Shown here in pieces: positions 1 to 15,864 of a stretch of DNA of 64,000 nt. The notes under the pieces are model-generated. The model saw only the letters and a program-made list of their open reading frames with translations, was not told where the DNA came from and made no database searches. This DNA comes from a virus (Duplodnaviria > Caudoviricetes). Positions within the stretch are counted from its first letter, which is position 1. Each line of letters starts with the position of its first letter. The stretch covers positions 1 to 64,000 of the IMG/VR virus record IMGVR_UViG_3300026549_000039; one strand, written 5' to 3'. The position numbers were made by a program, and so were the translations under genes.

Positions 1-124
1 CTCCCTTGGGCCGTCACTGAGTGAGGGGGCGGCTCCCTTGGGCCGTCACTGAGTGAGGGGGCGGCTCCCTTGGGCCGTCACTGAGTGAGGGGGCGGCTCC
101 CTTGGGCCGTCACTGAGTGAGGGG
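1..124. repeat. 32-bp tandem repeat, about 3.9 copies, running off the window edge
   Basis: CTCCCTTGGGCCGTCACTGAGTGAGGGGGCGG starts at 1, 33 and 65, with a partial copy at 97. Confidence 0.97.
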
Positions 125-129
125 CCACG

Positions 130-212
130 GCGTCACTCAGTGCGTCACTCAGTGCGTCACTCAGTGCGTCACTCAGTGACGTAACTCAGTGATGTAACTC
201 AGTTACATAACT
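130..212. repeat. 12-13-bp tandem repeat GCGTCACTCAGT x4 plus degenerate copies
   Basis: Exact copies at 130, 142, 154, 166, then GACGTAACTCAGT, GATGTAACTCAGT and TACATAACT; the core is the reverse complement of the 32-mer core. Confidence 0.95.
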
Positions 213-1262: not shown

Positions 1263-1332
1263 GGGGTCAGTCCTTCCCCCTCTTCCCTCACAGCAGCAGC
1301 ATAAAAGGGAAGCCTGCCGGAAGGATGACCCC
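1263..1332 (+). promoter_or_regulatory. long intergenic stem-loop, possible RNA processing site
   Basis: Nested pairings GGGGTCA/TGACCCC, TCCTTCC/GGAAGGA, CTTCCCT/AGGGAAG. Confidence 0.55.
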
Positions 1333-1391
1333 ATAAGGGCATGACCCCATAGGCAAAGACCCCCATATGGGGGCAGAAAGGTTGGAGTAGC

Positions 1392-1661
1392 ATGATCGAG
1401 CAGATTAGGAAGACGGTTGTGGAGAATTTCGGCGGCATCTTCAAGAGTGCGGATGAGCATGTGTACCTGCTCATCAAGCGCAATGGTGACATGGCTTGCA
1501 GCTATGACGCCATGCCGGGGACGGCCATCCCCAGCAGCAGGGACCGCTTCTTCAGGCTCCCCGCTGGCCGGGTGAAGAAGAAGACCCGCATGGCCCTGCT
1601 GAAGAGCCACGACTGGCTCTTTGCCCCCTATCTCCTGAAGGAGCTGGGCCTCATCAAGTAG
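1392..1661 (+). CDS. basic hypothetical early protein
   Basis: GGAG RBS; coding-like codon bias. Confidence 0.75.
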   Translation: MIEQIRKTVVENFGGIFKSADEHVYLLIKRNGDMACSYDAMPGTAIPSSRDRFFRLPAGRVKKKTRMALLKSHDWLFAPYLLKELGLIK

Positions 1662-1773
1662 GCCCGGCCCCTTCGGGGGTGACCCCGTGACCCCATGACC
1701 CCGTGACCATCCCAAACCACAGGGGCCACGGGGGTCACCCCATCACAAAGCGCAAGCAGCAAAGCACAATACA

Positions 1774-1830
1774 GGGCGAAACGGGGACAATATGTCCCCG
1801 TCTTGGGGTAAAGCCCCAACTGATGAGCCC
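1774..1830 (+). ncRNA. type II hammerhead ribozyme
   Basis: GGGC-GAAA-CGGGGACA(ATA)TGTCCCCG-TC^-TTGGGG(TAAAG)CCCCAA-CTGATGA-GCCC: full catalytic core, GUC cleavage triplet, three perfect stems. Confidence 0.93.
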
Positions 1831-1848
1831 ATAAGGAGGAATCAACAC

Positions 1849-2259
1849 ATGAGACAGATCATGTTCAAGAAGCCGCGCCAGTTCCGTAAAAGCATGATAG
1901 AGGGGGAGTTGTACAACGTCACCACCGCAGCAGCATCAGACGTTGAGTATGCCCTGCTGTTTACTGGCAAGCAGGGCAGCAATGACCCCAGCAACGAGGA
2001 CGAGGGCGAGGCCCTTGTCTTCAGGAAAGTATCCACGGGGCAGGACATCATTGTCCCCATCAACGAGCCGGGGTTGACCATCGAGTGGGAGTATACCCGC
2101 TCCCCTCAGTCGGAGCCACTCCCCAATGACCCCATGACTGCGGTGGACCTCGCGAGGCTATACGTGAAATACAGCCTCGCCCCAAAGAACAAGACCCCGC
2201 GTGAGGTTGCGCGGGACGTTCAACAGGGATGGCGTCCCTTCCCCGTGGAGGGGCGCTAG
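1849..2259 (+). CDS. hypothetical early protein downstream of the hammerhead
   Basis: AAGGAGG at 1833-1839 and ATG at 1849; the track start 1792 lies inside the ribozyme. Confidence 0.8.
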   Translation: MRQIMFKKPRQFRKSMIEGELYNVTTAAASDVEYALLFTGKQGSNDPSNEDEGEALVFRKVSTGQDIIVPINEPGLTIEWEYTRSPQSEPLPNDPMTAVDLARLYVKYSLAPKNKTPREVARDVQQGWRPFPVEGR

Positions 2260-2302
2260 TCGGGGGCAATGACCCCCACAAAAACACAAGGAGGAAACCA
2301 AA

Positions 2303-2710
2303 ATGGCAAAGAAAGACATGAAGGATAGGGCTCACGGCAATATAGACAAGGCGAGGGAAAAGGTCCAGGTCGCCATAATCCTTGACCCCAATGGGGTCAA
2401 GGTGGGCAGCGTTGTTCACCGCTGGACCTACCCCGCGACGGGGGGTGTTTGCCACACCAGCTTCAAGCTGATGAGCAACAGCAACTACGACCTTGACCCC
2501 GTGGTCCACTACTCCGAATCTGGGGGGTGCGGCTATGACAAGGCAGCCAATAACCTCTGCTGGGTCTTCTTGGATAAGCAGCCCCAAATTGAGGCCATAA
2601 CAGGCCGCCCCTATCCCAAAGACCCCGACGGGGGATTGACCTGCTACCTGGCCAACCACTGGAGGAGTTACTTGGAGGACGCGGGCTACCGCGTCATTGA
2701 CGCCCTGTAG
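2303..2710 (+). CDS. hypothetical phage protein (GGxGYDK motif), paralogue of 3150-3638
   Basis: AAGGAGG RBS; shares V.IILDP and Y.VI.AL with 3150-3638. Confidence 0.85.
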   Translation: MAKKDMKDRAHGNIDKAREKVQVAIILDPNGVKVGSVVHRWTYPATGGVCHTSFKLMSNSNYDLDPVVHYSESGGCGYDKAANNLCWVFLDKQPQIEAITGRPYPKDPDGGLTCYLANHWRSYLEDAGYRVIDAL

Positions 2711-2730
2711 AGGGCGTCAAAGAAAGGAGA

Positions 2731-3117
2731 ATGACCCCTATGATTAGGTACGTCTACGCACATATCGACACCACTTCCTCCCTAGCGGACACCCCGCTAG
2801 GGGGGGCCATGGTCAACGCCGCTTGGAACCATGGCGAGGCGTTTGTGAGGGGCCTGCTTGAGAAGCATGGCCCCGCAGAGTTTAAGGCCAAATGGGAGGG
2901 CCATGACCCCTGGACGTTCAGGGAGGAAATGTACATCAGAACGGAAGTCATGACCCCCCTCTGGCCCCTGTTGGACCTCCTCGAAGAAGCAGAGGAGGAA
3001 AACGCAGGGGAATTGAGGGCCGACATCATGGAGGCGCTGGAGAAAAGTCTGTGGCTTGCCTACACGGAGGCCATGGACACGGTAGGGGGCGACTATTGGG
3101 GCAAAGACCCCGACTAG
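2731..3117 (+). CDS. acidic hypothetical early protein
   Basis: AAAGGAG RBS; alternative in-frame start at 2740. Confidence 0.8.
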   Translation: MTPMIRYVYAHIDTTSSLADTPLGGAMVNAAWNHGEAFVRGLLEKHGPAEFKAKWEGHDPWTFREEMYIRTEVMTPLWPLLDLLEEAEEENAGELRADIMEALEKSLWLAYTEAMDTVGGDYWGKDPD

Positions 3118-3149
3118 CGCCCCCTATGACGTAAGGAGGAAGAGCAGAT

Positions 3150-3638
3150 ATGTCAGCAACATTCCGGTTGGACGCAAGGGTCAGCGATATCAAAGACCCT
3201 GTAGAGGCAGTCGAGGAGTACATCCTCGACACAAGGAAGAAAGTGCGGGTGTTCATTATCCTTGACCCCGCACTCCAGATAGCAGGGCGCATTGTCCAGT
3301 CCTGGGAGATGATACCCTGGACAGTCGGGCACCCAAGCGCCCCGGAAGTTCACCCCGGCGACTTCATGCCAATTCGGGGATGCATGGCCCGCGCAAGCGT
3401 AGAGCTTGACGTAGTGGGCCATGACCCCATCAACGTGACCGTGGAGGTCTGGGACAACCCCAAAGACCCCACGGACACGGCGCTGATGTACGCACTATTG
3501 GAGGCCCGTCAGGGTATCGAGGCCATAACAAACATGGCCTTCCCTGATCGGGATGACCCCCAGAGCTGGGATGAAATCCGCGCCCAATGGGTGGAGTGGT
3601 TCGAGGGCGCGGAATACAGCGTGATTGAGGCCCTCTAA
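3150..3638 (+). CDS. hypothetical phage protein, paralogue of 2303-2710
   Basis: AAGGAGG RBS; shared motifs and shared downstream junction sequence. Confidence 0.85.
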   Translation: MSATFRLDARVSDIKDPVEAVEEYILDTRKKVRVFIILDPALQIAGRIVQSWEMIPWTVGHPSAPEVHPGDFMPIRGCMARASVELDVVGHDPINVTVEVWDNPKDPTDTALMYALLEARQGIEAITNMAFPDRDDPQSWDEIRAQWVEWFEGAEYSVIEAL

Positions 3639-3668
3639 AGGGCCTCAAAGAAAGGAGAATGACCCCCT

Positions 3669-4244
3669 ATGAAGAAGGACACTGACAGCATTATTCGCAT
3701 TATTCGCGAGCAGTTCCACGAAGTCCCCACGAGGGATTACGCCGCGCCCACAAAGGAGACCCTGTATGCAGAGCAGTGGGCGAGCATCAAGCGGACCTGT
3801 GAGACCCTCGCCTATCTCTACGATGGAGATTTGTACGTGGGCGACATGATCACGGAGGCCGCTGTGGATGCAGCCCCCATCGACAACCGGGAGATCATGC
3901 GGGCCTATGAGGATGTGGAGCCGTTCGTGGCCGAAGTCCTGGCCGACGGCTACGACCTTGACCCCAAGAGTTTCAGGATCCCGCAGCTTGTACAGGCGGG
4001 GTATGTGCGCTTCTTGGAGGCGGCGGCCTATGAGAATCTTCAGACGATTTTCTTCAACAGGTTCGCGGCCTGCGCAAATGCTGACCCCGCCTTGACCGGG
4101 GAAGACCCCGACGATGACCCCCCGGTGGACCTGATGAAGCTGGAGGCCGCCCTTGAGGCGGCGGCGGAAAAGGTAGACAATAACATGACCTTCGCGGAGG
4201 CCGATGCAATCTACCGCGAGGCCGTGAAGGGCTTCAAGGCGTAG
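3669..4244 (+). CDS. acidic protein, possible Ocr-like DNA-mimic antirestriction protein
   Basis: GDMITEAAVDAAPI...QLVQA...YENL recalls T7 Ocr HDAIHMAADNAVP...ILQARIYEQL; D/E-rich. ORF is solid, function tentative. Confidence 0.5.
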   Translation: MKKDTDSIIRIIREQFHEVPTRDYAAPTKETLYAEQWASIKRTCETLAYLYDGDLYVGDMITEAAVDAAPIDNREIMRAYEDVEPFVAEVLADGYDLDPKSFRIPQLVQAGYVRFLEAAAYENLQTIFFNRFAACANADPALTGEDPDDDPPVDLMKLEAALEAAAEKVDNNMTFAEADAIYREAVKGFKA

Positions 4245-4279
4245 GGGATGACCCCCTACGCCTATAACACGAAAGGAGA

Positions 4280-4930
4280 ATGCAAGAGATGATCGAGATA
4301 GCGAGAGCAGTTGACCCCAAGATCGGGTATGTAGAGGTGTGCGCAGAAGATTACGCATACGAGAATCCTATGAAGGACTGGGATCACGTCCCTGACATTA
4401 TGCTGATACACCGCTATAGAGGGCTCGCGACCCTGGACGATGACCCCAGAGACTACAGTATCAGGGAGCTAAGTGAGCGCTACGGGCGGGATGGGGGCCT
4501 TGCACTCCCCGTGTACGCCTATGACCACAGCGGGGTATCATTCGCCGTTAGCGACGGCTACCCCTACAATGACCCCTGGGACGCCGGGATTGCTGGCATT
4601 GCCTACGTCAGCCCTGAGAAAGCAAGGGCAACGTGGGGAGAAACCCTGACCCCGCAAGAGCTCAGGGAGAAATGCAGGGACAGCATAGAGAGCCTTGTGG
4701 CTCTGATGAACGCTGTGGCCGACAATGAGTGCTACTTCGTGACGTGGTATGACACGGAGTGCAACCCCGTAGATAGCTGCGGGGGATTCTGGAAGACAGA
4801 CAGATACAGCTACGAGGAAATGTTCCGCGATATGGCAGACATGGCCCCAGCAGAGTATCAGCCCCTCTTTGAACGCCTTGAGGCGTGGAAGATTGACCCC
4901 ATCAAGGTGAGCAGGAAGCTCATAGACTAG
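4280..4930 (+). CDS. conserved phage/mobile-element hypothetical protein
   Basis: LPVYAYDHSG...DPWDAG motif recalled from phage/ICE proteins; AAAGGAG RBS. Confidence 0.75.
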   Translation: MQEMIEIARAVDPKIGYVEVCAEDYAYENPMKDWDHVPDIMLIHRYRGLATLDDDPRDYSIRELSERYGRDGGLALPVYAYDHSGVSFAVSDGYPYNDPWDAGIAGIAYVSPEKARATWGETLTPQELREKCRDSIESLVALMNAVADNECYFVTWYDTECNPVDSCGGFWKTDRYSYEEMFRDMADMAPAEYQPLFERLEAWKIDPIKVSRKLID

Positions 4931-4943
4931 GAGGATAACCCCC

Positions 4944-5150
4944 ATGGTAAAAGGTCGGAAATATTATCTACGCGTTCTCACGCCTTACGGCATGGAGCGC
5001 ATAGCGGGGCGCTACGTGGGTAACAACTCACGTGGCGTCCTTCGTTTCTGTGACCCCGATGATGACAGCATCGAGTATGAGGTCAACGATTGCTGTATCT
5101 TCGGGGTCAGGACGGCCATATGGCCGCAACATCTGGTCATAGGAGGATGA
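4944..5150 (+). CDS. small hypothetical protein
   Basis: AGGAGG RBS; fills the gap between neighbours. Confidence 0.7.
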   Translation: MVKGRKYYLRVLTPYGMERIAGRYVGNNSRGVLRFCDPDDDSIEYEVNDCCIFGVRTAIWPQHLVIGG

Positions 5151-5155
5151 CCCCC

Positions 5156-5590
5156 ATGAGCGATCTATATGGCGGCAAGGTAGCCAGCGCTTGGACAAAG
5201 CTGGCTAAGGGTGTATCGGTCTATGTGGGATTTGTGACCCCATGTGGGCGTGTGCCCCTGGAAGTCCTCCGGGTGCAGATTAACCACAAGACACGCAAGG
5301 ACGGGACACAGGAACACGAGGCGTTCATCCTGTTGACCCCGAAAAACGGTAGGAACGTAAACGTCACAGGATGGGGCGCGGGCGAGACTGAGACATTGGC
5401 GCTAGTCGGAGCTGTGGAGGCGCTGTGGGCCTCCATGAAGGGCAACAACTACCCAGAGATGCCCCTGTTCATGCACTACGACAGGGAGCAGTATAGTGTC
5501 TATGCGCTCTGCGAAGAGCTGAGCGCAGGCAACAGGGATCAGGCCCTGTTGAGGATGAACGGTAGCATTGTATGCTATCAAGCTGTATAG
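5156..5590 (+). CDS. hypothetical protein, possible distant paralogue of 2303/3150
   Basis: AGGAGG-ATGACCCCC-ATG start context. Confidence 0.75.
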   Translation: MSDLYGGKVASAWTKLAKGVSVYVGFVTPCGRVPLEVLRVQINHKTRKDGTQEHEAFILLTPKNGRNVNVTGWGAGETETLALVGAVEALWASMKGNNYPEMPLFMHYDREQYSVYALCEELSAGNRDQALLRMNGSIVCYQAV

Positions 5591-5619
5591 AACGGGCGAA
5601 CATAAGGAGGATGACCCCC

Positions 5620-5955
5620 ATGAAAGGCAACGGAATCAAGGCAAAGACCCCGGTAGAAAAGCCGGACGTAATCAAGGTCCTGAGCGCAGAACAGCTAGAG
5701 CAGGTCAGGGAGTACTTCAGGTGGGAGTTCAGGGAGACAGAGCTGAGGGGAGCCTTGGACTCCCTGATTGACCTCAAACGCGGCAGCGGGGAGGAGCAGG
5801 ATGCGTCCATGATCGAGGACGCACAGGAGATAATCGTGGAGACACTCCTGCCTGAGACGGAGGAATGGGAGGAGAACATCTACAACTACTGCGCTAACAG
5901 GCAAATCTCCTTCCTTGACGAGATTGACGCACGGCTGAAGGGGTGGATCCTGTGA
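5620..5955 (+). CDS. acidic hypothetical protein
   Basis: AAGGAGG-ATGACCCCC-ATG start context. Confidence 0.8.
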   Translation: MKGNGIKAKTPVEKPDVIKVLSAEQLEQVREYFRWEFRETELRGALDSLIDLKRGSGEEQDASMIEDAQEIIVETLLPETEEWEENIYNYCANRQISFLDEIDARLKGWIL

Positions 5956-6064
5956 GGATGACCCCCTGCGCAGCAATTAGGTTGTTGTGCGCTATGCACA
6001 ACGTAGAGCTAATCGAGCAAATCTTGCATATTGCCATTGAGCTGGCAGAAAGGATCGGTTAATC

Positions 6065-6508
6065 ATGATGACTACGAGGATGGAGTACGTAAAGAAAGAC
6101 AGCCACAGCATTGACACCGTGACCCTGAGCGTGAACGTTGATGCAGCCTCTGAGATGGCAGCCCTGGCCCTGAAGCATGACCCCACTCTGCTGAGAATCA
6201 ACATCGTGCCAGAGACCGACGGAGAGGACACACTCTACTACGTGGCCTACCCAGAGGATGCAAAGCCGGTCGCAATCCACATGGATAACCCCGTAGCTCT
6301 GAAAGTCATGGACATTGACGATGACGAGCAGCTTATCCTGAAGATTGCTGACAACTACTTGGCCGAGGCGTTTGAGATTATCGACTACGAGGACAACGAC
6401 GGGGACTTCATCAGGGGGATCGCAATCGGGAACGACTTCATCCCCATGAATGAGTTCATCAGCACTGACAGCCCGTGGGTTGCGGGCAAGATGAAAGGAG
6501 GTAAGTAG
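6065..6508 (+). CDS. very acidic hypothetical protein
   Basis: AAAGGA RBS; Asp/Glu-rich. Confidence 0.8.
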   Translation: MMTTRMEYVKKDSHSIDTVTLSVNVDAASEMAALALKHDPTLLRINIVPETDGEDTLYYVAYPEDAKPVAIHMDNPVALKVMDIDDDEQLILKIADNYLAEAFEIIDYEDNDGDFIRGIAIGNDFIPMNEFISTDSPWVAGKMKGGK

Positions 6509-6510
6509 CA

Positions 6511-6948
6511 ATGTGGGGTAAGCCCATCAGGGGTCAGAGTGACCCCATAGGAGCGTACAAGGCGCGTAGACTGGAGGAAGCAGGTGAGGCCAAGTGCCTC
6601 ACCATCCCTCTTGACAGCACACTTACCCTGACCTTGACCCCGGAGCAGGATGCACAGCTATACCAGTACTACCTGCGTCAAATGGACTGGGAGGAGGCAG
6701 AGAATCAGGTGGCGCGGGCCGTGGAAAGCATGACCCTGTACTCCGATGACCCTGTGTGCATACAGGAAGGGCAGCGCCTAGACCATAACAGGCGAGAGTT
6801 CATCGAGAAACTCTTGCCTGATATCCCTGATATGCGCGAGGAATCCCTCAGATTTGCCGATAGTGAGGGAATAGGTATCTACGATCAGGTCAGGGATAGA
6901 TTGTCTGAATTGCTAGACGATGACCCCATTAGTGAGGGGGAAGACTAG
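6511..6948 (+). CDS. acidic hypothetical protein
   Basis: AAAGGAGGT RBS; tightly packed. Confidence 0.8.
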   Translation: MWGKPIRGQSDPIGAYKARRLEEAGEAKCLTIPLDSTLTLTLTPEQDAQLYQYYLRQMDWEEAENQVARAVESMTLYSDDPVCIQEGQRLDHNRREFIEKLLPDIPDMREESLRFADSEGIGIYDQVRDRLSELLDDDPISEGED

Positions 6949-6951
6949 CAG

Positions 6952-7503
6952 ATGGGGATGGCAGTGGCAGATATGGCACAGCAAGAGCTGGATGGTATCC
7001 TCCCCGGTGGTCTTACATGGACCTGGGTGCAGGGTGAAGGTATCACGGTATACAGAGAGGATGACCCCATCCTCTCTGTAGTATGGAGTTACGGAAAGGT
7101 AAAGATGGAGCACTACGAGGGAGGTGTGATAACACTAGAGCAAAAGTTCCTGCTGGGGAAGGTAGCAGCACAGCTCATGGATATGGAACAGCCTATCGTA
7201 GAGGAAATCTGGCGTATAGTGGAGCCCTACGCACGGATGACCCTGGCCGACAAGGCTAAGGTGTGCCGTAGGGAGGAACTAGCCAACTTCTTCTATGATG
7301 GCAATCCTGTGTACTACAAGACCCTGACAGGCTGTATAGACCGTGTACGCGAGCAACTGGGAATGTGTGGAGAGGAGTGGGATGAAGCATTTGAGCTGTA
7401 TTCCAACGTATACACGTATGCAGATGAGGTCGAGAATTGTATCATTGAGACACTGCGGCCTTACTTTGCGTTTGAATTTGTGCTAAAGGAGCCTGATGAA
7501 TGA
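6952..7503 (+). CDS. hypothetical protein
   Basis: Operon packing; GAGGGGG RBS. Confidence 0.75.
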   Translation: MGMAVADMAQQELDGILPGGLTWTWVQGEGITVYREDDPILSVVWSYGKVKMEHYEGGVITLEQKFLLGKVAAQLMDMEQPIVEEIWRIVEPYARMTLADKAKVCRREELANFFYDGNPVYYKTLTGCIDRVREQLGMCGEEWDEAFELYSNVYTYADEVENCIIETLRPYFAFEFVLKEPDE

Positions 7504-7952
7504 TGAATACTACTGACACAGGAACACCTGAAGAGAGGAGAGAGATCAATATCGGCATACTGCGAGGGCTGGAGGCTGGAGCTACGTACAGGCGCATCAA
7601 AAGCCTACCAGCCCTAGATGATCTGCTGATTCTCAAAAAGAAAGACCCCGAGGGGCTGTATAAGGCAGCCGTCAAGCTGCGCGTGGACCGCGAACAGCTT
7701 GAAAATGACGTGCTTGTCCCCCTGCGCAGGGCGGTAGCCGAGGTTATCAACCTGCGCTCAATCATGATCGATGGCGAACCCCTCTTTGACGATGACCACT
7801 ACGCCACGATAAACCAGGAACACTGGCAGCAAAACGCTATAGCAGGGCTGCTTAGCCAGATGATGCACACAGAGCTGGCCCTGTTAAAGTATGAGAGCAA
7901 GGATACGATGGACCGTCTGGGATTGACCCCGGACACAGACACTAACGCATAA
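7500..7952 (+). CDS. hypothetical protein
   Basis: ATGA overlap with the upstream stop; AAGGAG RBS. Confidence 0.8.
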   Translation: MMNTTDTGTPEERREINIGILRGLEAGATYRRIKSLPALDDLLILKKKDPEGLYKAAVKLRVDREQLENDVLVPLRRAVAEVINLRSIMIDGEPLFDDDHYATINQEHWQQNAIAGLLSQMMHTELALLKYESKDTMDRLGLTPDTDTNA

Positions 7953-7971
7953 CACATAGGAGGATACCAAA

Positions 7972-8367
7972 ATGGCAAAGAAGGCAGCAGCGAAGAAGGT
8001 TGACCCCAAGGAGCAGCAGCGCGAGAACTGGCACGCCCTGGCGAAGATGTGCCGCAGGTACGTCGAGCTTAAGGCCCAGATGGATGAGATGGAGAAGGAG
8101 AAGAAAGCCCTGTCCGCGCTCATTAAGCAGGCTGTACCCGAGAGAGGGCAGGCTAAGGGGATTGGAGACCCCGAGATTGCAGGCAGGGTCTACAACATCA
8201 AGATCACGGAAGTACAGAGTAAGCGCATGGATCAGGACTTGGTGCGCAAATTCTTGACTGATGAGCAGATCGAGGTCTGCACCAAGATCGTGACCTCAGA
8301 GCGCATGACTGTTGATGCTATGGACATTGTGGCGCAGGCGGCCTGCGCCGAGACCAACTTCCTGTAG
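7972..8367 (+). CDS. coiled-coil phage protein, weakly Gam/gp157-like
   Basis: AGGAGG RBS; RRYVELKAQMDEMEKEKKAL coiled coil followed by a beta-rich tail. Confidence 0.6.
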   Translation: MAKKAAAKKVDPKEQQRENWHALAKMCRRYVELKAQMDEMEKEKKALSALIKQAVPERGQAKGIGDPEIAGRVYNIKITEVQSKRMDQDLVRKFLTDEQIEVCTKIVTSERMTVDAMDIVAQAACAETNFL

Positions 8368-8406
8368 GGCCTACCCTACAGGAAGATGACCCCATAAGGA
8401 GGCATA

Positions 8407-8871
8407 ATGATGAGCAGCAAGAAGACGTTGGTAGTTAAGGGTCAAAGCGGAGTTTTACCGAGCGGCATGGCCTGGATGGAGATGGACGGGGAAATCTGGG
8501 TGTACGGCAAGAACGCCATGGGAGAGAATGAGTGGTTAGTTCCTGCTCTCAGCCTGCTTGACCCCGCTGACGCAGACGAGATGGCCTGCCTTGGCACCAT
8601 GCTGAATCAGGAAGCCGAGCAGATGGAGAAAGACGCTCATTGGTACGGTACCACCTGGATGGACAGCATTATTGGAGACGGGGAGCTCGACGAGTGGCAG
8701 GACATGGACTATTTTGCCTTCCAGCAGGCCCTGAGCAACGCTAATGACCCCGCCTTCACACCAGACAGCGAAGACGTAGACTACAGCAGCGTAGATGGTG
8801 AGTTCTATGTGCTGGCTGTAGATGCTGCGTGGAATACCCTGTGCAACGCCCTTGGTGACGATGAGGACTAG
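8407..8871 (+). CDS. very acidic hypothetical protein
   Basis: AAGGAGG RBS; D/E-rich. Confidence 0.8.
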   Translation: MMSSKKTLVVKGQSGVLPSGMAWMEMDGEIWVYGKNAMGENEWLVPALSLLDPADADEMACLGTMLNQEAEQMEKDAHWYGTTWMDSIIGDGELDEWQDMDYFAFQQALSNANDPAFTPDSEDVDYSSVDGEFYVLAVDAAWNTLCNALGDDED

Positions 8872-8876
8872 CGGCT

Positions 8877-9287
8877 ATGATGTACTGGGACCCAGACCTG
8901 CATGAAATGGTGTGTGATGAGGAGGAGACCCCGTTCAAGCTGAATCCACCTAAAGAGGTGCCTAGTTGCCCACAGGTTGACCCCCTCTCACTGTATGCTG
9001 CGTTAAAGCTCGCTAGTGTGCCAAAATCAGAGTACACTAGCTGGAACGTGAAACCTGTCGTGACAACACCCGCCAAGATTCTAGCCTTTTCACTCTTCTT
9101 GGTGGAGGCGCTTTATGGGTGTGCAATACTGCTCTGGATTTTCTGCTCTTTCATACTCCCGATGACCGATCACCTTCCATCGTTTCTAGGGCTAGTTGTA
9201 GCCCCCATAGCTTTAGGCGTATGGGTTTATTACGCAGAAGAAAAGGAGATAGCAAAGGGAGAAGATGAATCACTGTGTGGGCTGTAG
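8877..9287 (+). CDS. membrane protein with 2 predicted TM helices
   Basis: Hydrophobic stretches ILAFSLFL...CSFIL and FLGLVVAPIALGVWVYY. Confidence 0.7.
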   Translation: MMYWDPDLHEMVCDEEETPFKLNPPKEVPSCPQVDPLSLYAALKLASVPKSEYTSWNVKPVVTTPAKILAFSLFLVEALYGCAILLWIFCSFILPMTDHLPSFLGLVVAPIALGVWVYYAEEKEIAKGEDESLCGL

Positions 9288-9604
9288 GCATATGTGAAAG
9301 ATGCGGGACAGTGGTAGCTTTCAGAACAACGACCCCGGTAGTCAAGTCCTTAATGCGGGGTCACAGCTACTACTGTCCCGTATGTGGTATGTACAAGCTG
9401 CTGAAAATCCATGCAATTCCTAATGCGCAGCAGCTTGATAAGGCGTATAATGAGCTCCGTGTAGGAATCATCCTCGAATCCAATACGGAGGTCAGTCAGT
9501 ACAATGCTCAAGAAGACGCAACCGAAGGACTTGTTAAGAAATATAAAGACCCCAACAGCTTGTGGTGGCTCGACGAAGCCAATCAAGCTCCTGAAGGGGA
9601 CTAA
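9275..9604 (+). CDS. zinc-ribbon protein
   Basis: CERC...CPVC. Confidence 0.65.
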   Translation: MWAVGICERCGTVVAFRTTTPVVKSLMRGHSYYCPVCGMYKLLKIHAIPNAQQLDKAYNELRVGIILESNTEVSQYNAQEDATEGLVKKYKDPNSLWWLDEANQAPEGD

Positions 9605-11126
9605 CCCCGGCACATTGACAACCAAAGGAGGAAGTCTGGTAGATACCAGCATGAGGATGAATACACAGAGACAGGTAGTTGAAATCAAAGTAGGATACAC
9701 GTATTCCAGGATAGTGACCCCCAAGGAAGCAATCGCCCTTGCGGCGAAGGAGTTCTCTGCATTCGCCCGCAATGCTCAGTATCAGACTCTCTATCAGCGC
9801 GGGTTGTGGGATGGCCGCTACTCCATGGTCAACAAGAAGGACGGGTCATTCGGTACAGGTATGCTGGCCGACATCAAGGCATACCTAGAGCATGAGATCG
9901 GAGCAGCTATAGAGGTAACCGATCTCAGGGAAATGCCCCCGTCCAGCTACTCCTATGAGTGGCTGTTTGACAAGCCTCTGCGTGAGGCCCAAGTGGGTGC
10001 GCTGGAGAAACTTAACAGCAACACAAGCGGGATAATCCGCATGGTTACAGGGTCAGGAAAAACGAATGCCTTCAGCAAGCTGATTCAAGAAAGAGGGGTC
10101 CGAACTCTGGTATGTGTCCCCAGTAAGGAGCTACTCTACCAAACCGCAGAAGTGTTAAACAGCAACATTGGCGGTAAGGACTTCAAGCTGGGCTTGCTTG
10201 GCGACGGACACTGGCCTGATGAGCGTAGCACAGTGGTTGTAGCGATGTATCAGAGCCTGGTCTCTCTACACGGGAAGACCCCAGAGGAACGGGCGCAGTT
10301 CATCGAAACCATGGGCAGCTTTGACATGCTGATTTGTGACGAGTGCCACAAGGTGTGCTCGAACGACAGCATCACAAAGACTTGGGAGACCATCATGGAC
10401 ATCAACACCTACTACCGCTACGGATTCTCCGCGACCCCGTATGAAAAGAAGGGCACCGTGGCGGAAATGCTACAAAGGTCTGCCTTTGGCAAGATTATCT
10501 ATGACATGAACATGAAAGAGGCACGTGAGGCCGGATACGTGACCCCGTTCACTGTATACATGCTAAAGCCCGAGTATCCCAGAGAGCTGACCCGGCAGGG
10601 CACTACTGGAATGACCTGGAACGAGGCCCATGACTACTACATTGGGAACAACGCTACCAGGAATGACGCCGTAGTGCAGGCTGTAGGCTTGCTCCTGAAG
10701 GATAACAGGAAGGTGATGGTGGTAGCTCAAAGGATACAACACAATGAGCTGCTCGCCAAAATGTTCGCAGAGACCTACGGAGAGGATAATGTGTACCTGC
10801 TGCATGGACAGCTTGACAGTACATACAGGAAGAAGAGTATGAGTGAGTTCAAAGCACGAAAGACCCCCTGCATCATGGTGGCAAGCTCTGTAGGGAATGA
10901 CGGCATCGACATCCCAGACATTGATGGGCTCGTGCTTGCTCATGGTGGCAAGTCCTTCTTCCAGAACGTGCAGAGGACAGGCAGAGGACTGAGGTCTGCA
11001 CAAGGCAAGAAGGACCTTGTGTTTATTGACTTCAATGATGCAGCCTTGGGCCGCTGGTTCCAGAACCACACCAAGAAGAGGGTGGAGTACTATCAGGATC
11101 TGGGCGCTAAGGTTGTATTTGCATAG
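9504..11126 (+). CDS. SF2 DExH helicase, UvsW-like (true start probably near 9636-9657)
   Basis: Motifs MVTGSGKT, DECH, SAT, GIDIP, QRTGRGLR. Confidence 0.92.
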   Translation: MLKKTQPKDLLRNIKTPTACGGSTKPIKLLKGTNPGTLTTKGGSLVDTSMRMNTQRQVVEIKVGYTYSRIVTPKEAIALAAKEFSAFARNAQYQTLYQRGLWDGRYSMVNKKDGSFGTGMLADIKAYLEHEIGAAIEVTDLREMPPSSYSYEWLFDKPLREAQVGALEKLNSNTSGIIRMVTGSGKTNAFSKLIQERGVRTLVCVPSKELLYQTAEVLNSNIGGKDFKLGLLGDGHWPDERSTVVVAMYQSLVSLHGKTPEERAQFIETMGSFDMLICDECHKVCSNDSITKTWETIMDINTYYRYGFSATPYEKKGTVAEMLQRSAFGKIIYDMNMKEAREAGYVTPFTVYMLKPEYPRELTRQGTTGMTWNEAHDYYIGNNATRNDAVVQAVGLLLKDNRKVMVVAQRIQHNELLAKMFAETYGEDNVYLLHGQLDSTYRKKSMSEFKARKTPCIMVASSVGNDGIDIPDIDGLVLAHGGKSFFQNVQRTGRGLRSAQGKKDLVFIDFNDAALGRWFQNHTKKRVEYYQDLGAKVVFA

Positions 11127-11192
11127 TATAGAACGGTGTTGTGCCAAAAGCATGACCCCATAAAACGGAAATAGTTAGACAATTTGCAGGCA

Positions 11193-11220
11193 TTGACATT
11201 ACAGCGTTTGGCTGTATTAT
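11193..11220 (+). promoter_or_regulatory. sigma70-type promoter with overlapping palindrome
   Basis: TTGACA-16 bp-TATTAT; TACAGC/GCTGTA inverted repeat across the spacer. Confidence 0.65.
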
Positions 11221-11290
11221 GGAATGTATAGACAATTCCTTTTCTGTATGGGTAGCGTCTATGCATTCTTGCTTTTTCTGGAGGTATGAC

Positions 11291-11887
11291 ATGTCGAAGT
11301 TCTTAAACAGCAACCCCGTTGATCGCGTTGATATGGTGGACACATCATATCCCGGCCTGATGGCTGGTACGAAGGAGCTAATAGGTGCTGCGTGCGCTGT
11401 CGTGGACAAGCTCAACATCCCTGACAGCAAACACGTGTTCGCAGCCGAGATGCTGTTGCTGTCTGGGCTTAGCCTGTTGATGGTCGCAGACAAAGGGTTC
11501 AGCAGCAACATCCACTACGACAACCTGCACATTGACGGTAAGAAGCTGCCTGTACAGACGGTTAGTGTTCGCATTACTACCAATGCCCCCGCTGATGCAA
11601 ACCTGGATCGTCCGTCCCCGGTACGCAGCATGAAGGAAAATCCCAATCAGGAGGTAGAGGCTGAGGCTGAGCCTACCCCTGTAGAAGACTCTCTTGATGA
11701 TGACTACCCCAATGTGCAGGACGCAAGCGAGTATGAAGAGGCTGTAGCAGAGTGGGAGAGGGACCAGCAAAGGTTTGGGGACAAGCCAAAGATGACTGAT
11801 ACTGGAACCAAGATAGGTAAAAGACCCCCTAGCAAACCCTCGGTGCCTAAGAGACCTGCTGGCAACCTTCACGGAGGTGAGAAGTAG
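11291..11887 (+). CDS. hypothetical protein with a disordered acidic-then-basic tail
   Basis: GGAGGT RBS before ATG 11291. Confidence 0.75.
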   Translation: MSKFLNSNPVDRVDMVDTSYPGLMAGTKELIGAACAVVDKLNIPDSKHVFAAEMLLLSGLSLLMVADKGFSSNIHYDNLHIDGKKLPVQTVSVRITTNAPADANLDRPSPVRSMKENPNQEVEAEAEPTPVEDSLDDDYPNVQDASEYEEAVAEWERDQQRFGDKPKMTDTGTKIGKRPPSKPSVPKRPAGNLHGGEK

Positions 11888-11890
11888 ATT

Positions 11891-13273
11891 ATGCTTTTCG
11901 GAGAGTTTGTAACCAAGCTCGAAAAAGCGAGTGGAAAGAAGGCCAAGGAAAAGATCATCGCTGATGCGTGCAAAGCTGCCCCTTGGATAAAGGACGCCAT
12001 TGTGGCCACCTATGACCCCTTCTGCCAGTATTACATCAAGAATGGGTTGCCAAAGGTGGTAGTAGCGTCTGCCAAGTCGGACAGCACTGTAGACTTTGAC
12101 GAGAAATTCTGGACTGGAACTGTGCAGCCTCTACTGGCTGGTATGAACCAGCGTAGGTGGAACAAGGCAGAGGTGGTAGACCAGCTGAGCCTGGCCTTCG
12201 CTAACCTCAACCAGGGAGACAGGGAGGCTCTAAAACGTATCATTCTCAAGGACTTGAGGGTAGGAGTAGGGCCAAAGGGTTACAATGCAGCACTTGGTGA
12301 GAATACCCTCCCTGTGCCCGATACGCAGCTCTGTAAGACATGGGACCCCGATCTTAATATAAACGTAAAGGGGTGGTGGGTAACGCCCAAACTGAACGGC
12401 CTACGTGGGCGCTGGACGGTAAGAAATGATAGGTTTGCATTCCTTACCAGGGAGGACTATCCGCTCATAGGATTCCCCTTTATTGAGGAGGAACTCAAGG
12501 CTATACAGGAGAAGTATGGCCTAGTTATGATCGACGGTGAGATATTCAGCTTCGACCTCCCCTTCCAAACCATCATGAGCATTGCCAGGACTGAGAAGGA
12601 GGTGTCCCCGCAGGACAAGGCAAAGCTCAAGTTCCATGTGTTCAACATCAGGAAGGAGACCCCGTACAAGACCACAAAGGATATGGTCAACGAGCTGAAC
12701 GCTATCTTCAAGAATAAGGACAGCTATCAGTACGTTACCAAGCTGGACTACGAGTGGATGGGCAACAGGCCCGCAGCCATAATAGCTAAGTGCCAGAGCT
12801 ACACCAACCTAGATTATGAAGGGATTGTACTCCGTCACCCCGATATGGCTTGGGAACCAGCCAAGCGCAACAACCACCTTATGAAGTACAAGATATTCTA
12901 TGAGACCGATCTAAAGGTGGTTGACATACTCTTCGGGGCTGAGGGTAAGAAGTGGGAGTCTACAGTTGCAGCCCTGCTGTGTGAGGGCAAGGTACCAGCA
13001 CGCAGGGCAAGAATAGGCAACCATACGATCTGGAAACCCGTGTCTGGTTCGGTTAAGGATTATGTAGGAGAGGAGATTCGTGAGATCCCTGTGCAGGTTG
13101 AGGCTTCATGCTCGAAATGCACGGATGCTGAACGAATGACCCTCACCAAGGTTGGACGCGACCTCATTGGCCTCACAGCGGAGGTGTCGTTCCAGGCGTT
13201 CGGGGACAAACCGAGCCAGGATGGTGTGTACTCGTTGCAGTTTCCAGTGTTTCAGAAGTTCAAAGACATCTAA
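11891..13273 (+). CDS. lig: ATP-dependent DNA ligase
   Basis: N-terminal DNA-binding region (IILKDLRVGVG); motifs KLNGLR, IDGEI, FHVFN, EGIVLR, MKYK; OB-fold SLQFPVF. Confidence 0.92.
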   Translation: MLFGEFVTKLEKASGKKAKEKIIADACKAAPWIKDAIVATYDPFCQYYIKNGLPKVVVASAKSDSTVDFDEKFWTGTVQPLLAGMNQRRWNKAEVVDQLSLAFANLNQGDREALKRIILKDLRVGVGPKGYNAALGENTLPVPDTQLCKTWDPDLNINVKGWWVTPKLNGLRGRWTVRNDRFAFLTREDYPLIGFPFIEEELKAIQEKYGLVMIDGEIFSFDLPFQTIMSIARTEKEVSPQDKAKLKFHVFNIRKETPYKTTKDMVNELNAIFKNKDSYQYVTKLDYEWMGNRPAAIIAKCQSYTNLDYEGIVLRHPDMAWEPAKRNNHLMKYKIFYETDLKVVDILFGAEGKKWESTVAALLCEGKVPARRARIGNHTIWKPVSGSVKDYVGEEIREIPVQVEASCSKCTDAERMTLTKVGRDLIGLTAEVSFQAFGDKPSQDGVYSLQFPVFQKFKDI

Positions 13274-13286
13274 GGAGGATATTGCT

Positions 13287-13796
13287 ATGCCTATGGGATT
13301 TAAGCCGCACGTGAATCGCGTTTGGGAGTTCAGCAAGCTGATGGGAATACTGAAGGAAGCTATGGGGCCGGAGGTGGTAACAGACCCCGGTTGGTTAGGC
13401 CTCCCCTACAAGTTCTACATGCCCTACCTAGCCTTTGAGAGCAACCCAGAGGATGGGTACGACCAGCTTCACGTGGTAAAGATTAGCGCCACAGGTCTGT
13501 TCTACATACACAGACTCGATAGTATAACAGGCGAGCCTATATCTCAAGACCCCGTTCTGTTTCTTGGGGATGGCAGGAATGAGGGATACGTTGTAGTCAG
13601 GTCCCATGCAGATGATTCTATAGAGCTGGCACGGGCTACTCTTTTTGATAAGGACGGGGTGGCTGTAGCACAGACGTATACCAGGCTTATCAGGCTGTGG
13701 GGGACAGAGGATGTGGAGACCCTGTTAAGCAGCTTCCTTAGCATGAGAGAGTTACAGAAGCTCAAAATAGGGGCGCTTAAGAAGGCAACGTTCTAG
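13287..13796 (+). CDS. hypothetical protein
   Basis: AAGGAGG RBS before ATG 13287. Confidence 0.8.
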   Translation: MPMGFKPHVNRVWEFSKLMGILKEAMGPEVVTDPGWLGLPYKFYMPYLAFESNPEDGYDQLHVVKISATGLFYIHRLDSITGEPISQDPVLFLGDGRNEGYVVVRSHADDSIELARATLFDKDGVAVAQTYTRLIRLWGTEDVETLLSSFLSMRELQKLKIGALKKATF

Positions 13797-13869
13797 GCTG
13801 TGGGGTATAATAGGCTCATCCTAGGCTGTAACAAGCCGCTTATCTTTCAGGAAGGACGTGTTGGCTACT

Positions 13870-14379
13870 ATGGCTGAAAACGATGTTGTATACGGCTACC
13901 ACGAATTTTGGGCAACAGGGGACTGGTTTGACGCCAATGACCCTGTACTGCGTGTAGGCGAGCGTGGGAACGATGTAACGCGCCTTGTTTCAAAATTTGG
14001 GGACGGGTCTACACCGTGGAGCAGGCTGCCCCAATTTACCTTCCAGTCTGCCTACGACTGCTACCTCCGGCTGGAGACACTACAAGGTGTCCCCGTGGCA
14101 AACCTCAAATCCGAGGCTGACTGGCTGAACAGCATGAAAAACCCCAGCATTGACTGGGACTCGCTAACAGCAGCGCAGAAGGCGGAATTGAAGGGGCCTC
14201 CTGGTGAACAGGGCGAACAGGGAGTGGCTGGTAAATCTGCCTTCCAGCTGGCGCAGGACGGCGGGTTCACGGGCACGCAGGCGGAATGGCTGGAGAGCCT
14301 CAAGGGTGAACCAGCGGTCAACGCCGACGTGATCGATGGCAACCTTCCCGTGCAGAGTAGTGGAGGCGGGGGCGCGTGA
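13870..14379 (+). CDS. fibre-type protein with Mtd_N/hyaluronidase-like N-terminus and short collagen segment
   Basis: NDPVLRVGE...KFGDGSTPWSRL; GPPGEQGEQG; GKSAFQLA..GFTGTQAEWLESLKG. Confidence 0.75.
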   Translation: MAENDVVYGYHEFWATGDWFDANDPVLRVGERGNDVTRLVSKFGDGSTPWSRLPQFTFQSAYDCYLRLETLQGVPVANLKSEADWLNSMKNPSIDWDSLTAAQKAELKGPPGEQGEQGVAGKSAFQLAQDGGFTGTQAEWLESLKGEPAVNADVIDGNLPVQSSGGGGA

Positions 14380-14399
14380 CCCCATAGGAAACAGGAATA

Positions 14400-14455
14400 G
14401 GCGGCGGCTTTGAGGGATCTAAAACAGCAACCCCCAGAGCCGCCGCCAAGTTTTT
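14400..14455 (+). terminator. intrinsic terminator
   Basis: GGCGGCGGCTTTG/CAGAGCCGCCGCC stem followed by AAGTTTTT. Confidence 0.7.
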
Positions 14456-14520
14456 AAAACAGCAACCCATAGCTGTAGGCTTATGCTACGGCTGCTGGTC
14501 CTTTTAACCCCGAAGGGGTG

Positions 14521-14542
14521 CCCGCCCGTTAGGGCGGGTTTT
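14521..14542 (+). terminator. second intrinsic terminator
   Basis: CCCGCCC-GTTA-GGGCGGG-TTTT. Confidence 0.7.
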
Positions 14543-14590
14543 ATACTCCTATATACCTACTCCTATACCTACTCCTATATATACTTCTAT
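14542..14590. repeat. AT-rich short repeats beside the iterons, possible unwinding element
   Basis: TACTCCTATA x3 plus TACTTCTATA. Confidence 0.65.
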
Positions 14591-14636
14591 AAGGGCCCCG
14601 TAAACGGTTCAGCCGCAGCGGTTTAGGTGCTGTTTT

Positions 14637-14816
14637 TGGCGTCCACGAAATCACGTTTTTGGCGTCCACGAAATCACGAAAATGGCGTCCACGAAATCAC
14701 GGTTTTTGGCGTCCACGAAATCACGATTGGCGTCCACGAAATCACGTTTTTGGGTTTGACCCCCTATACCGTACCGTGATTTCGTGGACGCCATTTTCGT
14801 GATTTCGTGGACGCCA
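14637..14816. repeat. iteron array, putative replication origin
   Basis: TGGCGTCCACGAAATCACG exact at 14637, 14660, 14683, 14707, 14728 and inverted at 14775, 14798; 21-24 bp period; abuts the rep stop codon. Confidence 0.88.
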
Positions 14817-15614
14817 CTACTGCTTTGCACCTATGAATATCCTATCCCCATAGAGGGAGGGTACCAGCATACCGTAGTGATCTGCCGACCTATCTACACA
14901 CCGCTCATACCACCTTTGTACACCCTCATGCCTCCTCCTGTTTGAGTTGGATGTCCACTCTGTAGGCTTCGGTATACCTGTTATCCTACAGAATGTTTCT
15001 ATGGACAGATTTACAACAGGCATATCAGGCTGCTGATTCATTTTGTAATGCACAAGCATCTTACGCAGCAACATGAACGCATATACAGGTATCTTGTTCC
15101 TACCCCTCTGGAATCTGTACAGGCACACAGGAGCATCAATGGGTGAAGGCTGGTTTACATCACCCCACTTACCAAAATGGTACAGATACCTAAGCTCAAG
15201 GATTCCTGTTTCAGTGTCCAGGTTGAAGCTGTGAAGGATAATTCCTAATTCACAAAGGATAGTGCAAGCCTCAAGGAAGCGGTTAGCCCATGCAGTACGT
15301 GACCTGCCTATAGCGGTAGCCTGGCACCCTTTTGGGTATACCTGCTGTGCTAACTCATTTAGTTTCACAGGTATGTCCAGCTTCGGTCTATACCGCTTCT
15401 TACCATCCAAGTATCCTGATTTATCCTGCTGTTGTACGCAGTTGTGCATAATGAATAAAGAAAGCAGCAAATCAGCAACCGGGGTACACCAATACTGACC
15501 CGATGCTACCAGAGTATCATGGATCCAGTTGAGTAACCTGTTGCTACGGCTGTTTTGATAGACTTTTATGGTGTGAGAAAGTACACCTGCTCCACCGCTA
15601 TTCCTGATCTTCAT
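14817..15614 (-). CDS. putative plasmid-type replication initiator (Rep_3/TrfA-like tandem winged helix)
   Basis: YAFMLLRKMLVHY...NLSIETFCRITGI resembles the second winged-helix domain of initiators; directly adjacent to the iterons. Confidence 0.65.
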   Translation of the reverse strand: MKIRNSGGAGVLSHTIKVYQNSRSNRLLNWIHDTLVASGQYWCTPVADLLLSLFIMHNCVQQQDKSGYLDGKKRYRPKLDIPVKLNELAQQVYPKGCQATAIGRSRTAWANRFLEACTILCELGIILHSFNLDTETGILELRYLYHFGKWGDVNQPSPIDAPVCLYRFQRGRNKIPVYAFMLLRKMLVHYKMNQQPDMPVVNLSIETFCRITGIPKPTEWTSNSNRRRHEGVQRWYERCVDRSADHYGMLVPSLYGDRIFIGAKQ

Positions 15615-15660
15615 GACAAACTACACCCCTACTTTCGTAGAATTTGCCATCTCAGATCGG

Positions 15661-15690
15661 TTGGCGGTACACAGGCAGATATGATATAAT
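15661..15690 (+). promoter_or_regulatory. promoter antisense to the rep leader
   Basis: TTGGCG-18 bp-TATAAT with extended -10 TGn. Confidence 0.7.
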
Positions 15691-15696
15691 CTAGCA

Positions 15697-15780
15697 CAGT
15701 GAGTCACCGACCTCAGCGCTATCTGAGATGGTGAATAGGTAGGTCTGACTTTGAGGGGTCTGGGCCTACCGTTCCTTTTG
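15697..15780 (+). ncRNA. putative ~80-nt counter-transcript (copy-control antisense RNA)
   Basis: Upstream promoter; ends in GGTAGGTC/GGCCTACC hairpin plus TTCCTTTT; lies opposite the rep 5' UTR. Confidence 0.55.
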
Positions 15781-15807
15781 ATTATAACATAGCATCCAAT
15801 GGATGCT
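15781..15807 (-). promoter_or_regulatory. rep promoter with operator-like palindrome
   Basis: Minus-strand TGTTATAAT at 15789-15781; AGCATCC-AAT-GGATGCT at 15791-15807. Confidence 0.65.
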
Positions 15808-15825
15808 GATGAAAAGAACGCACAT

Positions 15826-15864
15826 AAAACAAGAGCCGGATGCTGTTCAAAAGCATCCGGCTCT
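15826..15864 (-). terminator. intrinsic terminator
   Basis: 13-bp stem AGAGCCGGATGCT/AGCATCCGGCTCT followed by a T-rich tract on the minus strand. Confidence 0.8.

Follow-up and report, generated by a model that had tools for sequence, protein, structure and literature searches.

A candidate iteron-type replication origin with its own initiator gene in a large uncultured tailed phage

Our analysis suggests that a large tailed phage (Duplodnaviria; Caudoviricetes) carries an iteron-type replication origin, here called ori1, together with its own initiator gene, rep1, at positions 14400-15790 of the stretch of DNA that was examined. This stretch (hereafter, the window) is 64,000 nucleotides long and corresponds to positions 1 to 64,000 of IMG/VR record IMGVR_UViG_3300026549_000039. 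The source record is a viral contig of 146,263 bp that is classed as linear and estimated to be 86% complete. We put the probability of this reading at roughly two in three. It draws on the repeats that adjoin rep1, the fold of the Rep1 protein, a paralogous module elsewhere in the genome, the co-variation of Rep proteins and iterons among related phages, and the instability of a neighbouring AT-rich tract, each of which was observed.

The array consists of seven exact copies of the 19-mer TGGCGTCCACGAAATCACG within 14637-14816. Five of the copies are direct (14637-14746, + strand), starting at 14637, 14660, 14683, 14707 and 14728 with spacings of 23, 23, 24 and 21 bp, and two are inverted (14775-14793 and 14798-14816, - strand; spacing 23 bp). 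Iteron-type theta origins are recognized by direct repeats of 17-22 bp, at least three in number and in helical phase; here, five direct and two inverted repeats were found at a spacing of 21-24 bp, or about two helical turns. When up to three mismatches were allowed, the whole 146,263-bp genome yielded these seven copies only, and a reversed control pattern yielded none. Tandem Repeats Finder (TRF) detected just two non-coding arrays of 22-23-bp period in the genome, one at ori1 and the other at 82.5 kb. The last inverted repeat ends at 14816 and is directly adjacent to the stop codon of rep1 (14817-14819), a gene on the - strand (14817-15614) that encodes a protein of 265 amino acids (aa), P0001.

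On the other side of the array is an AT-rich tract of 57 bp (14540-14596; 67% A+T) made up of about three 12-nt units of the TACTCCTATA type. Judged by nearest-neighbour free energy, the least stable 40-bp segment of this tract is at the 99.97th percentile of the genome. An AT-rich unwinding element is expected next to the repeats of an iteron origin, and the tract is the probable DNA-unwinding element of ori1. Transcription converges on the site: downstream of a + strand gene that ends at 14379 there are hairpins with T runs, located at 14400-14447 and 14519-14539, and rep1 arrives on the - strand. The initial annotation, which was made from the letters of the window, had described the five direct and two inverted repeats, the AT-rich repeat tract on one side, the 265-aa gene whose stop codon touches the last repeat and the convergent transcription, and all of these were borne out.

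By sequence, Rep1 is an orphan. P0001 found no match in Pfam or PHROGs even at E = 10, and at E <= 5 no Rep family matched any of the 14 family members. Searches with the family profile recovered no Pfam family and no Rep among PDB sequences, and a six-frame search of the genome with PF01051 gave nothing at E <= 1. Relatives are also few: a search of 5.8 billion proteins returned only two close ones, and an exhaustive HMMER search of 1.84 billion cluster representatives returned 13 family members. The resulting 14-sequence alignment has the conserved motifs DLLLS..N, YPKG, PSPxxVPxxLYR, KMN and G..W.

The fold of Rep1 was examined using an AlphaFold (AF2) model of P0001 (predicted local distance difference test score, pLDDT, 85.5; predicted template modelling score, pTM, 0.84). 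The model contains two helix-strand-helix...helix-hairpin units, which form two winged-helix domains, and P0001 thus presents the WH1-WH2 tandem in one chain of ~250-300 aa. VIA-align was run against 48,161 PDB representatives, and the top match was Pi in complex with iteron DNA (2nra_C, Z 10.5), with 202 residues aligned at a root-mean-square deviation of 4.2 and residues 13-265 covered. The next matches were RctB domains 2-3 (Z 7.5), RepE (6.8) and the WH1 domain of pPS10 RepA (6.7); generic winged-helix proteins gave Z <= 5.6. A comparison with RepE and Pi by Foldseek, which the initial annotation had proposed as a check, gave a favourable result, in that the top 41 PDB matches were all RepE or Pi (probabilities 0.75-1.0; E-values marginal, near 1e-3). 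The nearest viral models in BFVD include a "Replication initiator protein" and "COG5527 ... initiation of plasmid replication", and the nearest Atlas clusters are Rep3_N/Rep3_C, RPA, TrfA and RepC, at template modelling (TM) scores of 0.46-0.53. Based on the model, we conclude that P0001 has the iteron-initiator fold, yet lies outside all of the sequence families of these initiators as currently defined.

These structural matches also bear on a different explanation, in which the array is a partition centromere or an operator cluster and the 265-aa protein is a centromere-binding protein or a repressor. Direct-repeat arrays do act as centromeres (R1 parC, F sopC), repressors are commonly winged-helix proteins, and Rep-family initiators are autorepressors as well. 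Against this, all four of the top-ranking structural matches are replication initiators and cover both domains, and the array is located at the 3' end of the gene, with no promoter detected within it. A centromere would be accompanied by a ParB, ParR or ribbon-helix-helix (RHH) binder and an NTPase motor, but the neighbouring protein has the Rep fold and neither ParA nor ParB was found in the contig. The AT tract, together with a conserved box and, in one homologous locus (L015), DnaA boxes, is an origin feature. We therefore regard the centromere or operator explanation as very unlikely.

The picture obtained from the window alone changes once the rest of the contig is considered, because a second, paralogous module is present outside of the window. 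This module, ori2/rep2, occupies contig positions 82,170-83,602 (L009 4170-5602). Its array has six copies of the 20-mer CCCCACATCAGATAGACCAG at a 22-bp period (contig 82,510-82,640). The stop of the rep2 open reading frame (contig 82,682-83,602, - strand) is near the array, and its product is a full-length paralogue of P0001 (25% identity, E 1e-15); gene callers in other samples start the protein at an internal Met, for a length of 251 aa. A profile search of the genome showed that there are exactly two rep paralogues. The non-coding regions of ori1 and ori2 align element by element, while the iteron sequences differ. The order that they share, counted from rep, is iterons, a box (TGCGGCTGAAC(C)GTTT(T)AC), an AT tract, a GC hairpin, and TTGCTG(G)TTTAA repeats in GGCGGCGG stems. 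The AT tract of ori2 contains the least stable 40-bp segment of the entire genome. A search of the 5.8-billion-protein set with rep2 found four relatives only, and DNA and protein searches of cultured phages gave no match for the ori1 locus or for either Rep. The portal protein of the phage is only ~28% identical to those of 120-130-kb Streptomyces phages.

The second module is positioned in the replication block of the phage, which also contains PolA, between a 928-aa DnaB-like helicase and a primase that adjoins rep2. The primase (328 aa) has a CHC2 zinc ribbon, and we take its sequence to carry AEP motifs as well; it is followed by SbcC-like, NrdD and RecA genes. Overall, the replication genes of the phage comprise PolA, the DnaB-like helicase, the primase, RecA and ligase. 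As a separate observation, the DnaB-like matches of the 928-aa protein (contig 77,034-79,820, - strand; L008 17034-19820) are split into two segments, residues ~233-474 and 599-843, the first of which also matches terminase-like and DnaC-like P-loop families. Judging from these matches, the protein may be an interrupted or fused helicase.

Further support for the pairing of initiator and array was found in homologous loci. All of these loci were obtained by exact-protein look-ups, and their contigs were oriented with rep on the + strand; pattern scans of IMG/VR, a species genome set and JGI metagenomes gave no further relatives. In L013, L014, L015, L016/17, L018, L022, L023 and L024, the rep stop codon is followed by an array with a period of 21-24 bp. 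The repeat is CGGACTTTCGTGGCAGC in L013 (at least three full copies and one inverted copy), GGGACATCAGTGGGGG in L014, CGACGTAAGTGGGGGCTG in L015 (two copies and an inverted partial copy) and ACTTCCGCGGCGGGTGG in L016/17 (four copies, with spacings of 141, 33 and 23 bp). L022 has 23-bp units, L023 at least 11 units and L024 three units, and in L018 the array is only starting where the contig ends. All of the arrays have one orientation relative to rep and a common GTGG(G) core. The contigs of L013, L014, L018, L022 and L023 end inside the array or at its start, as expected of short-read assembly; in other words, short-read assemblies of this phage group break systematically at origins.

Among the loci compared, the repeats become more alike as the proteins get closer. 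Rep1 and P0004 (42% identity) have TTTCGTGG in common, and the repeats of Rep2 and P0018 (52% identity) agree at 16/20 positions. The full textbook order is present in L015, where iterons, box, AT tract and hairpin succeed one another and are followed by three TGTGGATAA DnaA boxes. In L024, the box and AT tract are almost identical to those of ori2 despite a Rep that is 52% identical to Rep2 (flanking proteins, 82-87%), and these non-coding elements are therefore under strong constraint. Sequence comparisons of this kind indicate that Rep and iterons evolve together as a specificity cassette. Taken together with the model fold, which resembles Pi, RepE, RepA and RctB, and with the instability of the AT tract, the co-variation of Rep and array supports the view of the initial annotation that this is an iteron origin with a divergent winged-helix initiator.

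Our comparisons have also shown that the cassette is replaced between closely related phages. The proteins encoded by the three genes upstream of rep in L018 are 98%, 97% and 94% identical to ours, whereas the L018 Rep (P0009) is <30% identical to P0001 and the L018 repeats differ. At the DNA level, the two phages are nearly identical across the terminator upstream, the promoter of rep and the first hairpin of the leader; this near-identity ends near 15755, inside the leader, and short islands are kept beyond this point at the -10 of an opposing promoter and in the region before the start codon. Similarly, a neighbouring protein in L013 is 83% identical, as compared with 42% for Rep. Since divergent Rep proteins and repeats are found next to similar or near-identical upstream genes, Rep plus iterons behaves as an exchangeable specificity cassette. 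The boundary of the cassette excludes a perfect 15-bp palindrome, GCATCCATTGGATGC (15794-15808), which lies over the -35 region of the rep1 promoter, and a bidirectional terminator beside it (15832-15864), with which it shares GGATGC/GCATCC words. Both are kept in L018 despite the different Rep, and thus are part of the flank. The palindrome had been considered as a relative of the iterons or as Rep1's own operator; this was rejected, given that it persists with small changes in L018 next to a different Rep.

Diversifying selection could explain why the rep1 cassette has been replaced between flanks that are 94-98% identical. In this scenario, the phage would have two orthogonal Rep/iteron origins for different jobs, and the rep1 cassette would be an incompatibility or anti-hijacking determinant. 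The origin in the replication block would be the lytic one, and the second would serve, for example, a par-less episomal or carrier state, or firing toward the left arm, which differs in composition. We consider this scenario doubtful. If it is true, large phages of virulent appearance would have, in the specificity of their origins, an "immunity-like" trait that evolves fast.

Returning to the reading that we favor, in which ori1/rep1 is an iteron origin with its own initiator, we infer binding, melting, origin firing and the role of each origin from the features described above. Each half-site of a 19-bp repeat would be occupied by one winged-helix domain of a Rep1 monomer, and adjacent repeats would be presented on one face of the helix. 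The Rep1-iteron complex would then melt the neighbouring AT-rich tract, and helicase and primase would be recruited to the melted DNA. Accessory factors probably act at the box and at the TAAAACAGCAA repeats, which occupy the place that is held by DnaA boxes in one homologue. The opposing promoter within the rep1 leader would provide antisense-RNA control of the Rep supply. In this genome, ori1/rep1 is one of two paralogous modules, each with a repeat sequence of its own.

The region upstream of the rep1 coding sequence provides some details of this putative control. The predicted rep1 promoter and leader (15615-15789, - strand) include an extended -10, TGTTATAAT, at 15781-15789 and a structured leader of ~165 nt. 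On the + strand, a candidate counter-transcript (15661-15785) comprises a promoter of the form TTGGCG-18-TATAAT with a TG (15661-15690) and an RNA of ~90 nt. The RNA is predicted to form two hairpins followed by a T run and is antisense to the rep1 leader, with a folding z-score of just -1.8. A parallel layout is found at the second locus, where TTGATA-17-TATAAT on the + strand is followed by a strong terminator ~200 nt downstream (L009 5519-5760). This arrangement suggests antisense-RNA (counter-transcript) control of initiator synthesis at both rep genes.

Several points weigh against ori1 being an iteron origin. By sequence, P0001 belongs to none of the Rep_3/Pi/RepE-type (Rep3_N, PF01051; Rep3_C, PF21205), RPA, TrfA or RepC families, and the alignment underlying its model is shallow, at 14 sequences. 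DnaA boxes (TTATCCACA-like, with at most one mismatch) are absent from the intergenic region of either module. Cumulative GC skew reaches a maximum at ori1, not a minimum, and follows gene orientation genome-wide. The peak is present because transcription converges there; we therefore rejected GC skew as a replication signal, and the search for a skew inflection that had been proposed as a check was uninformative. Lastly, the ori1 array is downstream of rep1. In F (incC) and P1 (incA), an array downstream of rep is a copy-control locus and not an origin.

With this in mind, we considered that ori1/rep1 could be a control or competition cassette that titrates or handcuffs Rep, as incA of P1 and incC of F do, or that excludes co-infecting relatives. 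The position of the array downstream of rep1 and its inverted pair would be in keeping with such a role, and a complete second module is already present in the replication block. A role in exclusion would also explain the free swapping of the cassette between phages with 94-98% identical flanks. Nevertheless, all of the ori2 elements (box, AT tract, hairpin and distal repeats) recur in ori1 in an unchanged order, the ori1 AT tract is extremely unstable, and the repeat sequences of Rep1 and Rep2 are unrelated. Because its iterons match no other site in the genome, ori1 has nothing else to handcuff. A control cassette is thus quite unlikely in our view.

The initial annotation had also proposed that the element is a phage-plasmid. 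One module, plausibly ori1/rep1, would then maintain a low-copy plasmid or carrier-state episome and the other would be lytic, as in the oriR/oriL pair of P1 or the RepL pair of crAssphage. There are features that would be in agreement with such a lifestyle, namely the plasmid-type initiator fold, the presence of two initiators that are ~25% identical and have an origin each, the lack of an integrase match in the contig, and candidate antisense-RNA control of both rep genes, which is a typical copy-control device of plasmids. For crAssphage, a dual lifestyle has been argued in a preprint on the basis of two RepL genes that are 24.6% identical (PMC10983915).

However, six-frame profile searches of the contig, which is ~86% complete, detected no ParA (AAA_31/CbiA) and no ParB_N, and searches of the same type detected no tyrosine or serine recombinase, no integrase and no HTH_3 repressor. 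The sole CbiA match in the contig was sub-threshold and within the RecA gene; a StbA/ParM search had no match, but its controls gave no signal either. Thus, the absence of an integrase agreed with what the initial annotation had led us to look for, whereas its parA/parB genes were not found. PLSDB (72,556 plasmids) contains no relative of either Rep, and a rep1-type pattern scan of 185,579 species (one genome per species), a set in which a resident episome would be expected to be assembled on occasion, returned no relative either, although pattern-based scans are insensitive. A phage-plasmid would be expected to carry partition or maintenance genes, or a repressor, and to appear as an episome in bacterial assemblies; none of this was found, given a contig that is ~86% complete and searches of limited sensitivity. 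Moreover, the phage has replication proteins of its own. The proposal of a phage-plasmid was not upheld by these results; it is unsupported beyond the plasmid-type module itself, and we think it unlikely.

As an iteron origin with its initiator, ori1/rep1 belongs to a mechanism class that is textbook. Similar to R6K gamma/Pi, F ori2/RepE and the RepA proteins of pPS10 and pSC101, Rep1 has two winged-helix domains, with Pi on its iteron DNA as the best match (Z 10.5). Rep_3-type replicons likewise have repeats of 19-22 bp at about two helical turns, an adjoining AT-rich element with short repeats, and an inverted iteron copy. They also conserve an iteron sub-motif within a family. This sub-motif is TGAGnG in Rep_3-type plasmids and GTGG(G) in the phage family. 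Unlike Rep_3-type initiators, the phage Reps show no detectable sequence similarity to Rep3_N/Rep3_C, RPA, TrfA or RepC. In addition, the phage origin is downstream of rep instead of upstream, its inverted copies are at the 3' end of the gene instead of over the promoter, and in place of DnaA boxes there are the conserved box and the TAAAACAGCAA repeats. The host replicon also differs, being a phage whose genome measures at least 146 kb and encodes a polymerase, a helicase and a primase. What is new here, then, is a family that is undetectable by sequence, an origin downstream of rep, the replacement of DnaA boxes by other conserved elements, the duplication of the module with diverged specificity, and the swapping of the cassette between near-identical phages.

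Lytic origins with ~19-bp iterons, an AT-rich stretch and a phage-encoded initiator are found in lambdoid phages (lambda, 434, phi80, P22, Stx). The specificity of the lambdoid initiator and the iterons co-vary, and they are exchanged as a module among otherwise similar phages. The exchange of Rep plus iterons as a specificity module described here resembles that of ori/O. In contrast, the ori of lambda is inside the O gene, O recruits the DnaB of the host via P, and there is a single origin per genome. Complexes of O with iterons in Stx phage are treated in a published study (PMC7466680). Two initiator genes and two origins in one phage genome are shared with P1 (oriR/RepA and oriL/RepL) and crAssphage. 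However, P1 has parAB as well as a toxin-antitoxin pair and a circuit based on a repressor, none of which was found in this contig. The RepL of P1 and crAssphage is also a different family, whereas the two modules of this phage are built alike and both resemble complete iteron origins.

A further parallel is with IncQ plasmids. The oriV of IncQ (RSF1010) has 20-bp iterons at a 22-bp period beside GC-rich and AT-rich segments, and the plasmid supplies both helicase and primase itself. The structural neighbours of P0001 include RepC clusters. Nevertheless, there is no RepC sequence match, the gene order differs, and the conserved box, which was considered as an ssi-like hairpin, folds inconsistently.

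For most large phages outside of a few models, origins are unmapped. The ori1/rep1 module provides a concrete candidate origin with an initiator for a ~150-kb uncultured phage lineage, and adds to the proteins with the plasmid-initiator fold a family that escapes profile searches. Unlike ordinary iteron replicons, this single genome has two paralogous initiator/origin pairs with different repeats, one of which has been replaced wholesale. It is a natural system in which to study how initiator-iteron specificity diverges and how cross-talk between two origins is avoided.

The remaining elements of ori1 lie on the side of the array away from rep1. Between the AT tract and the iterons is the conserved box CCGTAAACGGTTCAGCCGCAGCGGTTTAGG (14598-14628), whose core, TGCGGCTGAAC.GTTTAC, is common to ori1, the second locus, L015, L016 and L024. 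We considered the box as an ssi-like hairpin, but four versions of it, when folded, did not agree on a structure, and none was unusually stable (z +0.3 to -1.8); it is therefore described here only as a conserved duplex box. Next to the AT tract is a terminator-like hairpin, GCCCGCCCGTTAGGGCGGGT, followed by TTTAT (14519-14539, + strand), which would protect the origin against transcription that comes in on the + strand. The second locus, L015 and L024 have an equivalent GC hairpin after the AT tract. In the far flank (14400-14468), a GC-rich hairpin (GGCGGCGGCTTTGAGGG / CCCCCAGAGCCGCCGCC) is accompanied by TAAAACAGCAACCC, which is present at 14420-14433 and again at 14455-14468. The counterpart of this motif in the second module is TTTAAACCAGCAA, which occurs at the matching position within 37-bp repeats bearing GGCGGCGG stems. 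An Rfam search of the locus gave sub-threshold microRNA matches only, caused by the inverted repeat.

On one side, ori1/rep1 is flanked by an SF2 helicase, a DNA ligase and an Mtd_N-like gene, and its neighbours on the opposite side are tail-fibre-like genes. Across the array, GC content falls from 0.50-0.60 to 0.45-0.47, and for this reason a chimeric assembly joined at the array was suspected. This was rejected because in the related locus L016, too, a DNA ligase and tail-fibre-like genes are found on opposite sides.

The left arm of the genome has two further peculiarities, its GC content (0.50-0.60, as compared with ~0.46 elsewhere) and the polar distribution of the hexamer GACCCC. The latter, mostly in the form (A/T)TGACCCC or AAGACCCC, is spread over window positions 1327-14763. 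The first 15 kb have 69 copies on the + strand versus 7 on the - strand, and the remaining 131 kb have ~10 copies on the + strand. Most copies are within coding sequence, either in frame 0 (Asp-Pro) or in frame 2; some are between the ribosome-binding site and the start codon. The last polar copy of the left arm is TTTGACCCCC, held in the 28-bp spacer between the direct and inverted iterons (14747-14774). The T7-type primase site GGGTC is part of the complement, GGGGTC, which would be on the lagging-strand template of a leftward fork from ori1. It is speculation on our part that GACCCC is a primase site or a Chi-like end-protection signal. Lastly, both ends of the contig are tandem arrays. The left end (window 1-212) has a 32-bp unit repeated 3.9 times and then 12-bp units with a reverse-complementary core, and the right end (contig 146,164-146,260) has 13-bp units. 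These arrays may be true termini or packaging sites, or merely assembly breaks.

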